IMG/VR virus record: IMGVR_UViG_3300025751_000013
Span: 45,901 to 109,900 of that record
Reading direction: 5' to 3' (one strand)
From: a virus
Lineage: Duplodnaviria; Caudoviricetes
Length of the DNA stretch: 64,000 nucleotides
Shown: positions 1 through 2,928 of the stretch, one piece after another
How positions within the stretch are numbered: the stretch's first letter is position 1
Layout: each line of letters opens with the position of its first letter
Notes under the pieces: generated by a model
The model's database searches: none
Seen by the model: only the letters and a program-made list of their open reading frames with translations
What the model was told of the DNA's origin: nothing
Position numbers and translations under genes: made by a program

Positions 1-2928
1 ATTAGAGAAAATCCATTTAAGGTCGGAGATAAAATTAAACTAAAACCAAATAGTTTGACATTTACATGTGCATATGATACTACTACTCCGTTATCATATC
101 CAGATTATAACGGCGGAACTGGTGCAGCTCCAGCATGGCAAGCAGATTTAGAAATCACAGCAGCAGATGATGTTAGTATTACTGTTAACGTTGGAGATGC
201 CGCAGGCGCAGCAGCAACTAGTGTTCATACATTTGTAAGTGCAGATATTGATACTATTAGTTTAGTTCCAGGATATGTAACACCAAGCCCAACTGGTTAT
301 GATGCAGGAACTTACCTAAGTACATATAAACAAGCTAGAGATAATATCGAAGCTAACAGAGAGTTTATAATTGCAGACGTAATCGGATTCATTGAAACTG
401 ATGATACATTACTAGGATTTGACAGAGATACTTGTGCAAGAGATACTGGACTAATAATTGATGCAATATCATGGGATTTAGTATTTGATTCAAACCAACA
501 AAGTATTACAGCAGGTAGAGGATATCTAAGACAAGATGTAGGAGTTCTTCCAGCAACTCAAACAGCAGCTACAACAGCAGGATTTGATAGACTAAGAGAC
601 TTACTTTTGGCTCTAGTAATTCAAACTGGTGCAGATGCAGAAAGAGCAAAAGAAAGTATTTCGGCTAACATTGGTCTAATAAATGATATCATTACTAATG
701 GTGATAGTCAAACAATTCCATCTAGAAAACTTCCAGCACCAACAACAGGCGCAGCAATTGTTCCAACTGCTATTACATATACTCCAGCTGATGGTTTAAT
801 GGTTATTACATCAGAAGCGCATGGTTTAAATGTAGGCGATTATGTAATGATTGCAGACGAGAGTTTAACATTTACTTGTGAAAGTTCTCTAGGAAGTGGT
901 ATACTAGAAAAAATTAGTCATCCAAGATCAAACGAGTATGCAAGCCGTAGAGCAATTATTGTTTCAGCAGTAGCTGATGCCAATACATACACTATTAACA
1001 TTGATCCAAATCTTGAAAACAGTGGCGACGGTAATGTTGCTCATACATTTGTAAGTGCAAGCGCAAATGCAATTAAGAAAGCAGAAGATGCTAATGGTAA
1101 ATTAGATGTATTCTTTAACATTAGCGCACAGCGTACATGGATTATCGATGCAGTAGAAGACTATATTGAAGATGCTACCGGATTAAATCAACCAGCTGGT
1201 AGTTGGAATACCAAGTGTAAAGAAGACATAGGTCTAATAATTGACGCAGCATTGTATGACTTAATGTACGGTACCAATCTTGAAACACGCACAGCAGCAC
1301 AAGCATATACAACCGATGCAGGTGTATTACTACTAGGTGCAGACCCAACTGAAAGATCTAACACTATTGCAGCATATGTATATCTAGCAGACTTGCTTGA
1401 GCAAGTTGGTAATGATGTAGTTACAGAAACTTTATATGGCGATACAGCAACAGCTGGATTTACAGCAACTGGTACAGTACCAGGCGGCAACGGATCTCCT
1501 GCACTAGCAGCTCATGATAGTGTTGAAGTTGTTAGAGCTTACCTAGATGCATATGTTACAAGTGCAACTGATAATGCAACTGACAAAGCAGCAGCAGAAG
1601 CTACACTTCCTGCAGTTGCTTATGGTTCGAGAACTTGGTCTTCAACTACACAACAAGCTATATTCAACCAATTCCAAAGTGAACGTCAAGAATTGCAAGA
1701 TGCAGTTACAGCGTTTATTGAAGAGAACTTTGCTTATGTGCAAGAAAAATGTAAGAGAGATGTAGGCTATATTCTAGATGCAGTTTATTACGATATGACA
1801 TATGGTGGTAATAGCGAAACGTTTACAGTTGGTAAGAGTTACTTCTCCGACGAAGGTGTAAATCAATTAAGAACACTAAGAGAAGTAAATGCAACTCAAG
1901 CAGCATACGGACACTTAAGAGACTTAGTAGAAGCAGTTGCCATTGGTGATGACACCGTGGCGTTGATTGCAACTCCTAAACAGACAGATATTGCTTATAA
2001 TTCAACAGCAGTTGATCAGGGAGGCAGCAATGCTGGTAGTACCCAGGCTAAATTACTAATAAGCAATGTGTTAAGTTTCTTAGATGATACTATTAATAGA
2101 ACAAATGTAATACCAACTGTAGCTGAAACTACTCCATCTACATCATGGGTAGCAGCTGATCTAGTAACAGCCGCAACTGCACTAACTGATGCAAAGCGTA
2201 CAGTACAAGATGAAACAACTGTATTCATTGAAGAAAATTATGCTTACATTAAATCTAAGTGTGAAAGAGATATTAGATACATTGTAGATGCAGTTGCATA
2301 CGACATATTCTATGGTGGTAACTCACAAGCACATCTAGCAGCAGAGCAATATTTTGACGGAGGTAATTATCAAATACCAGTTCCAACAAAGAATGCTACA
2401 GTACAGACATTTAAATATCTACTAGAAATAATGTCAGATGCTGTACGTAACATTACTGTGTCTGCATTACAAAATAGAGTAATCCAAACTACAACTGGCG
2501 CATCTGCAACAACGTTTGAAGCAGATCGTATTAAGGACTTGTTAACAATTATTGTTAATCTAGTACAGCATGGTTACTCAAGTCAAGTTACATTTGATGT
2601 TAATATCACAACAATACCGAGAATTAACGAAAGTGTAACATTCCACCAAACAAGTTTGATTACAGCAAGTGGACAAACATTTGAGTGGGTTGGATCCGGA
2701 ACTAATATTCAATCAGCGGTTCCATACAAAGGCGGACAACCAGTTGAAGCACAACAGGTAGTGGAAAGTAACGAAGGTAAAGTTTACTTTACAAGTACTG
2801 ACCAAAAAGGTGACTTCAAAATTGGTAACAGCTTAACTATTGAACGTGCGTCTGGTACGATTACTGGACAGACTTTTGATAGATCACTATTCGCGGTGTT
2901 AACACCATACATCTTGTCACTACAGTAA
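1..2928 (+). CDS. Large virion structural protein (baseplate/fibre-associated), 5'-truncated; SLTFTC...HTFVSA beta modules plus four CxxDxxxI(I/L/V)DA helical repeats
   Basis: The frame is open from base 1, so the true start is upstream. Repeated modules; C-terminal SGQTFEWVGSG...GKVYFTSTDQKGDF region and hydrophobic end LTPYILSLQ, as I recall from T4-like phage structural proteins. Confidence 0.65.
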   Translation: MRENPFKVGDKIKLKPNSLTFTCAYDTTTPLSYPDYNGGTGAAPAWQADLEITAADDVSITVNVGDAAGAAATSVHTFVSADIDTISLVPGYVTPSPTGYDAGTYLSTYKQARDNIEANREFIIADVIGFIETDDTLLGFDRDTCARDTGLIIDAISWDLVFDSNQQSITAGRGYLRQDVGVLPATQTAATTAGFDRLRDLLLALVIQTGADAERAKESISANIGLINDIITNGDSQTIPSRKLPAPTTGAAIVPTAITYTPADGLMVITSEAHGLNVGDYVMIADESLTFTCESSLGSGILEKISHPRSNEYASRRAIIVSAVADANTYTINIDPNLENSGDGNVAHTFVSASANAIKKAEDANGKLDVFFNISAQRTWIIDAVEDYIEDATGLNQPAGSWNTKCKEDIGLIIDAALYDLMYGTNLETRTAAQAYTTDAGVLLLGADPTERSNTIAAYVYLADLLEQVGNDVVTETLYGDTATAGFTATGTVPGGNGSPALAAHDSVEVVRAYLDAYVTSATDNATDKAAAEATLPAVAYGSRTWSSTTQQAIFNQFQSERQELQDAVTAFIEENFAYVQEKCKRDVGYILDAVYYDMTYGGNSETFTVGKSYFSDEGVNQLRTLREVNATQAAYGHLRDLVEAVAIGDDTVALIATPKQTDIAYNSTAVDQGGSNAGSTQAKLLISNVLSFLDDTINRTNVIPTVAETTPSTSWVAADLVTAATALTDAKRTVQDETTVFIEENYAYIKSKCERDIRYIVDAVAYDIFYGGNSQAHLAAEQYFDGGNYQIPVPTKNATVQTFKYLLEIMSDAVRNITVSALQNRVIQTTTGASATTFEADRIKDLLTIIVNLVQHGYSSQVTFDVNITTIPRINESVTFHQTSLITASGQTFEWVGSGTNIQSAVPYKGGQPVEAQQVVESNEGKVYFTSTDQKGDFKIGNSLTIERASGTITGQTFDRSLFAVLTPYILSLQ

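Follow-up and report, generated by a model that had tools for sequence, protein, structure and literature searches.

Tandem domains of predicted phycobiliprotein-like fold in a giant tail-fibre-like phage protein, with bilin as a possible ligand

The repeat-bearing gene and its surroundings

The DNA analysed (the window, 64,000 nucleotides) covers bases 45,901–109,900 of the 109.9-kb IMG/VR virus record IMGVR_UViG_3300025751_000013 (Duplodnaviria; Caudoviricetes), for which CheckV gave a completeness of 30%, implying a genome of about 360 kb, that of an uncultivated jumbo phage of T4-like type. It opens with the 3′ end of a giant tail-fibre-like open reading frame (ORF) composed mostly of tandem helical repeats. 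Judged by predicted structure and sequence comparison, these repeats are very probably globin-type domains homologous to phycobiliproteins; binding of a bilin by them is a more tentative matter and is weighed below.

Frame 1 is open from window base 1 to base 2928 and is truncated by the window start; the full ORF (G000:C1:33952-48828, 4,958 amino acids) begins 11.9 kb upstream of that point. The repeats are 150–180 amino acids long, all-helical and arranged in tandem, and about 22 copies, each with a cysteine, make up most of the 4,958-residue protein. The last four lie in the window (repeats 1–4; table 1). In a cysteine census, 22 of the 35 cysteines of the full protein were located in C-x-R/E-D sites. 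The whole window was scanned with the motif C-x-[RKE]-D...D[AS], which gave only four sites, all in frame 1 of the plus strand, at the cysteine codons and peptides that an earlier note on this DNA had listed. As that note had also observed, Cys and Asp are kept in all four repeats; CxRD is present in three, and in repeat 2 (CxED) Glu replaces Arg.

Table 1. Features of the repeat-bearing gene (window positions).
Feature	Position	Strand	Remarks
Giant tail-fibre-like ORF, 3′ end	1..2928	+	975 codons + stop; from ORF list and genome walk
Phycobiliprotein-like repeat 19 of 22 (repeat 1)	313..750	+	Cys codon 433-435, TCARD; hmmsearch 135.7 bits
Beta-rich insert domain	751..1086	+	SLTFTC...HPR; one of six between helical repeats
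Phycobiliprotein-like repeat 20 (repeat 2)	1087..1617	+	Cys codon 1216-1218, KCKED; hmmsearch 99.8 bits
Phycobiliprotein-like repeat 21 (repeat 3)	1627..2157	+	Cys codon 1750-1752, KCKRD; modelled unit
Phycobiliprotein-like repeat 22 (repeat 4)	2134..2622	+	Cys codon 2260-2262, KCERD; hmmsearch 156.7 bits
Conserved C-terminal domain, ~100 aa	2623..2925	+	GQTFEWVG...DQKGDFKIG...LTPYIL; predicted beta-rich

The gene belongs to a structural module of T4-like type that also has genes for sheath, tube, neck, terminase, gp32 and UvsX, and the ORF matched PHROG families annotated as 'tail fiber protein' and 'virion structural protein'. From PHROG and RefSeq annotation together with gene position, the product may be a virion protein. 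The tail sheath was closest to those of Agrobacterium phage Atu_ph07, Sinorhizobium phage Phosso and Pseudomonas phage PA5oct (47–48% identity), so the phage is no cyanomyovirus; none of these three phages was among the repeat-search matches in 50,697 isolate records.

Six beta-rich inserts interrupt the helical repeats (those at window 1-120 and 751-1086 among them), each carrying SLTFTC..D......YP[RD] and a single cysteine of its own. No Pfam family was found for them, and a weak match to E1_FCCH (E 4.9e-5) was traced to one alignment member extending into a beta-rich insert. The C-terminal region of about 100 residues is the best-conserved part of the protein over all 19 related loci, with many invariant columns; its predicted local distance difference test (pLDDT) score in an AlphaFold2 (AF2) model was below 40, at which no fold is assignable. 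PHROG families 3442 and 17885, one labelled 'tail fiber protein' and the other without an assigned function, matched residues 840-975 through their own C-termini. Pfam gave nothing useful for the 975-residue fragment, the inserts, the C-terminal domain or the five small ORFs downstream, megablast of the region against the 50,697 phage records returned zero matches, and a search of the ESM Atlas returned nothing usable. The five small ORFs are followed by a single ORF of 9,511 amino acids (window 5432-33967, plus strand). No repeat was found by the repeat profile in the other ORFs of the record, the 9,511-residue one included.

Predicted fold and relation to phycobiliproteins

Repeat 3 was modelled with AF2 from a 58-row alignment (model m04b276b3597c; pLDDT 80.3, predicted template-modelling score (pTM) 0.78). 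Helices were predicted at residues 8-35, 40-60 (with Cys43 near the start), 64-72, 85-106, 111-116 and 136-157. In a Foldseek search of the PDB, phycobiliproteins alone were present among the approximately 50 matches listed (E 0.03-0.2; template-modelling (TM) score 0.38-0.60, mostly >0.5). VIA-align against 48,161 representative chains placed phycobiliproteins in all of positions 1-8 (Z 11.4-14.2), with the ApcE bilin-binding domain best (Z 14.2, root-mean-square deviation 2.2 Å over 119 residues), followed by far-red allophycocyanin (Z 14.0) and phycoerythrin (Z 13.3). Lower scores were obtained for photocobilins (11.2), the sensor-globin-like pXO2-61 (11.0), globin-coupled sensors (about 10) and RsbR (8-10). 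Because helical models often reach Z 14, weight was given to the occupation of the top ranks by one family and to the agreement in sequence register described below. The repeat model was matched as well (TM score 0.57-0.72) by BFVD models, built independently, of 'tail' and 'structural' proteins from cyanophages. The earlier note had proposed structure prediction and Foldseek on a single repeat; the outcome was a globin-like fold with phycobiliproteins on top.

The structural alignment starts at about phycobiliprotein residue 25-48, and the X-Y hairpin is therefore taken to be absent. The domain corresponds to the core of a phycobiliprotein (helices A, B, E, F′, F, G and H) lacking the N-terminal hairpin. 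Two repeats together with the C-terminal domain were modelled in a further AF2 job (14-sequence alignment); at pLDDT 53 and pTM 0.47 it was uninformative on packing, and in this low-confidence model the helix pattern of repeat 4 matched that of repeat 3.

By sequence, phmmer with repeat 3 as query matched alpha-phycocyanins among the PDB sequences at E 0.03-0.7. A profile was built from 58 non-redundant repeats of this phage and 19 related IMG/VR loci. Phycobiliproteins made up 29 of its 32 hits in the PDB (best E 0.017), and profile positions 6-65 aligned with phycocyanin residues 33-103. Sequence searches by themselves are marginal. The 'designed TIM barrel' matches of repeat 3 (E 1e-7) were rejected as an artefact, a weak 46-residue match being summed over the four identical repeats of the design; the spurious phmmer matches to de novo TIM barrels (E 1.8e-7) fall at window 1846-1983 (query residues 103-148).

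For profile-profile comparison, 31 cyanobacterial phycobiliprotein sequences (alpha, beta and others) were aligned from loci fetched by a cpcA pattern. The 58 repeats matched this alignment in hhalign with a probability of 91.3-92.7% (E 4e-7 to 1e-6) over 97-99 collinear columns, and C43, R45 and D46 of the repeat were placed on Cys84, Arg86 and Asp87. Similarity extends over 97-121 columns, with alpha-type subunits scoring highest. The native score of 46.3 compares with 11.6 for the reversed alignment, 10.9 +/- 2 after column shuffling and 19.2 +/- 3.1 (maximum 31.4) after shuffling in 10-column blocks, which often left the motif intact; since all controls score far below the native value, the match is beyond chance and reaches past the motif. 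The ungapped agreement of 11 of 21 positions between repeat 3 and alpha-phycocyanin, given in the earlier note, was reproduced against a genuine cpcA product from a cyanobacterial locus, with 7, 8, 11 and 10 identities for repeats 1-4, respectively.

Several results weigh against homology. The phycobiliprotein match was lost when a profile of the 16 best repeats of the phage itself was searched against the PDB. Pfam PF00502 (Phycobilisome) had no match at E <= 10 in the phage's own record, and against the 16 repeats it gave one match, at E 0.12 and below the gathering score. The AF2 fold, moreover, may have been biased by the motif. Together with HMMER E values against the PDB of only 0.017-0.03, these are the points in favour of a chance resemblance of the motif, by which the fold would be an AlphaFold artefact triggered by it and the repeat unrelated to phycobiliproteins. 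This we consider very improbable, given an hhalign score of 46.3 against a maximum of 31.4 in block shuffles that kept the motif, the concurrence of two different structure aligners, and the same fold in homologue models that were built independently.

The globin-type core of the repeats is collinear through helices A to H with those of alpha-phycocyanin and the ApcE bilin domain (Z 13-14, TM score 0.5-0.6), and their Lys-Cys-x-Arg-Asp, where helix E begins, falls on Lys83, Cys84, Arg86 and Asp87; equivalents of Tyr97 and Gly102 are retained too. ApcE offers a precedent in that its phycobiliprotein domain sits within a very large multi-domain protein and attaches bilin without a lyase. In phycobiliproteins Arg93 pairs with Asp13 of the partner subunit for alpha-beta monomer assembly. 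Both residues are invariant in the 31 phycobiliproteins, whereas the pair and the X-Y hairpin are lacking in the repeats, which have a conserved Asp at the Arg93 position, and assembly of the alpha-beta type is therefore not expected. The repeats differ further in a shorter B-E loop, in their arrangement as 2 to 37 tandem copies in fibre-like proteins of 750 to 6,700 amino acids, and in being phage-encoded, including by phages that lack psbA. Photoglobins, photocobilins and heme sensor globins have the same broad globin-like fold (Z 8-11) and score below phycobiliproteins; photoglobins carry CXQD (PMC10151467).

The earlier note's suggestion of tandem globin or phycobiliprotein-fold domains accordingly agrees with Foldseek, VIA-align and hhalign, all of which point to phycobiliproteins, and its phrase 'non-photosynthetic relative of that fold' best describes a domain that lacks the X-Y helices and is not detected by PF00502. 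The repeats are a new branch of the bilin-binding globins, tandem in phage fibre-like proteins, without X-Y helices and below the detection of PF00502.

Spread of the family and conservation of the site

A profile search of 1.84 billion representatives gave 1,578 clusters at 50% identity, 1,199 of them at E <= 1e-10, and the largest proteins reached 6,382 amino acids with 37 repeats. Stand-alone forms of 81-338 amino acids were sought among 5.8 billion proteins; none was found by single sequence and two were found by profile, both probably fragments.

Among the isolates (tblastn, 50,697 records), 196 records matched the repeat region, of which 184 were Synechococcus or Prochlorococcus phages. 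S-PM2p091, S-RSM4_214 and Syn1_101 are giant 'tail fiber' proteins with KC[RK]RD repeats, and in P-HM2 one giant ORF has KCARD and KCIRD repeats. These giant proteins of T4-like cyanophages are true homologues with the same repeat; they differ from the present case in coming from cyanomyoviruses, and none is annotated as phycobiliprotein-like. A second giant ORF of P-HM2 (L258, 82.9-84.0 kb, 3,682 amino acids) has diverged repeats with C-x-D-D replacing C-x-R-D. No repeat was found in pelagiphages Mosig and HTVC008M, which leaves a lone 'Pelagibacter' record in the tblastn tally unexplained.

Two ORFs with a single domain were noted in a complete relative of 383 kb (G002). In one (L176:538-1680, minus strand, 381 amino acids), residues 88-233 form a phycobiliprotein-like domain with HKCYRD that is inserted in a protein of the nitroreductase family (PF00881 at residues 258-346, E 4e-6, above the cut-off). 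The other (L175:526-1413, 296 amino acids) has AKCHRD and no further Pfam match. The non-fibre, nitroreductase-family setting hints at a ligand-binding module.

Conservation was measured in approximately 1,590 repeats from the best 150 representative, diverse proteins. Within the motif, Asp was retained in 99% of repeats and Cys and Arg in 95% each; the Lys that precedes the Cys was present in 53%. In phycobiliproteins CXRD is the chromophore motif, with Cys supplying the thioether link and Arg and Asp the hydrogen bonds to the bilin (Rockwell et al., PMC10151467). Specific to the phage family are a further Asp (99%), Tyr (98%), Thr (86%) and Asn (80%).

A different ligand at the site (heme, a metal ion held through Asp/Asp/Asn or a host surface molecule) would be in keeping with the several invariant acidic residues that line helix E, with the place of heme sensor globins and RsbR-type domains as structural neighbours (Z 8-10), and with the porphobilinogen deaminase of the phage described below, which feeds heme as well as bilins. 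Heme globins require a proximal His, and the repeats have none conserved (maximum 11% at one well-conserved position), which argues against heme ligation; phycobiliproteins stand 3-4 Z units above the heme globins, and the motif is that of bilin binding and no known heme or metal motif. Such a ligand is accordingly judged improbable.

The main rival is an apo structural bead, in which a globin of phycobiliprotein type, or of the type of the bacterial bilin biosynthesis-associated globins (BBAGs), was recruited as a rigid unit of the fibre and carries no pigment, the motif and the other invariant polar residues serving a buried network of hydrogen bonds or salt bridges, or a contact between repeats. 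This is a serious possibility, although we place it below an even chance. The invariant Asp, Tyr, Asn and Thr are unlike phycobiliproteins, the Asp at the Arg93 position could pair with the motif Arg, and the B-E loop, by which the bilin of phycobiliproteins is covered, is much shorter; the Cys is missing from about 5% of repeats, and the second P-HM2 protein has C-x-D-D. We know of no report of coloured virions. Against an apo bead, Arg86 and Asp87 of phycobiliproteins touch the chromophore and are dispensable for the fold, and retention of the three motif residues at 95-99%, with overall identity of about 20-30%, fits a ligand site that has been kept. The other relatives of globin fold that were found are heme or sensor globins and not members of bilin-binding families, and the domain also occurs once inside an enzyme away from any fibre.

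Bilin genes, light-dependent adsorption and biological meaning

Relatives found through the repeat were searched for bilin-synthesis genes. Heme oxygenase and a bilin reductase of the ferredoxin-dependent type (FDBR) were each present in two complete jumbo genomes, G001 and G002 (364 and 383 kb), and the partial records G004 and G015 likewise combine repeats with both enzymes. The relatives' FDBR shares 50% identity with the PcyX-like enzyme that pelagiphage Mosig encodes. When contigs were picked by FDBR alone, repeats were present in 4/4 of those at >=59% completeness, two further complete genomes included, and in 3/12 of the smaller fragments. Each of the four complete relatives thus has heme oxygenase and a PcyX-like FDBR but no psbA, and the two enzyme genes do not lie next to those of the repeats. 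Neither psbA nor psbD was found in the phage's own record or in the relatives searched, G001 and G002 included. The own record encodes the porphobilinogen deaminase HemC (PF01379, E 1.6e-67; G000:C1:10171-10770, 35 kb upstream of the window), which is absent from four relatives, the complete G001 and G002 among them. A three-gene cassette considered in G002 was dropped, as the ORF beside its FDBR is not recognisably a 5-aminolevulinate synthase.

BBAGs are non-photosynthetic paralogues of phycobiliproteins, of which BBAG-1 and BBAG-3 have CXRD, attach bilin by themselves without a lyase and are encoded beside heme oxygenase and FDBR (Rockwell, Martin and Lagarias 2023, PMC10151467). Compared by description, the phage repeats are alike in CXRD and may be alike in a genome-level link to the two enzymes, which occur in all complete relatives; they differ in that BBAGs are small single-domain bacterial proteins next to bilin genes, whereas the repeats lie tens of kilobases from them. 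The role of bilin genes in non-cyanobacterial phages has been called 'still enigmatic', with BBAG-like acceptors mentioned as possible (Wegner et al., PMC11480375).

In the proposed mechanism a linear tetrapyrrole (bilin) would be thioether-linked to the motif Cys of each domain, the attachment being lyase-free as in ApcE and the BBAGs. The bilin would be supplied by phage heme oxygenase and a PcyX-like reductase or, in cyanophages, by the host, and the fibre would resemble pigmented beads on a string. As for its role, gating of adsorption by a light-responsive fibre would be the most attractive, and a purely stabilising cofactor would be the more modest alternative. From motif conservation, the BBAG and ApcE precedents and the genomic association, binding of a bilin by each repeat at the conserved Cys is estimated to fall just short of an even chance, and the explanation as a whole, bilin included, is given a probability of roughly 0.45. 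With respect to the earlier note, its overall reading stood as regards the fold, and the binding of a tetrapyrrole keeps its conditional standing.

Adsorption in the dark does not occur in P-HM1 and P-HM2 and does occur in P-SSM2 and the podovirus P-SSP7 (Liu et al., PMC6628666). Light-dependent adsorption of S-PM2 has been described as independent of host photosynthesis and tentatively ascribed to host receptors and/or tail fibres (Jia et al. 2010, as cited in PMC6628666). The repeat profile matched P-HM1 (4 matches), P-HM2 (4) and S-PM2 (9) and gave zero matches in P-SSM2 and P-SSP7, so that 5/5 phages lie in the predicted direction, in a small and phylogenetically confounded sample. A pigmented fibre that acts as a virion-borne photoreceptor and makes adsorption light-dependent, with bilins from phage heme oxygenase and PcyX, PcyA or PebS or from the host, is regarded as unlikely, if attractive.

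A number of observations count against a bilin in these repeats, in addition to the confounding just mentioned. The family-specific Asp, Tyr, Thr and Asn have no phycobiliprotein counterpart and may belong to another ligand or a structural network, and the B-E loop is short. No CpeT lyase was found in the own record or in four relatives, and that record, 110 kb at 30% completeness, yielded neither heme oxygenase nor FDBR. Because every positive case comes from a single clade, the association is one at the level of the lineage and not an independent replication. Mosig has hemO and pcyX, yet no repeat, and P-SSM2, which is also without repeats, carries pebS and ho1; both phages speak for the unpigmented bead as well. 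Strict coupling of bilin genes and repeats was rejected on account of Mosig. The hemO-pcyX genes of Mosig (L155, MT647606 39650-43977) are located immediately upstream of neck-protein genes and have as neighbours a putative ferrochelatase and four 2OG-Fe(II) oxygenase genes.

Globins of the phycobiliprotein type have so far been known as cyanobacterial antennae and, since 2023, as the small bacterial BBAGs. The repeats are a large phage-borne branch, and no description that links phycobiliprotein folds with phage fibres was found in the literature searched. Even if unpigmented, they bear on the origin of the phycobiliproteins, and the 'missing' tail-fibre proteins of cyanomyoviruses gain a fold through them. 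The analysis further suggests that some phage particles may carry pigment. If this is true, a pigmented fibre would explain the bilin-synthesis genes in phages of non-photosynthetic hosts, and it would explain the light-only adsorption of S-PM2, P-HM1 and P-HM2 independent of host photosynthesis.

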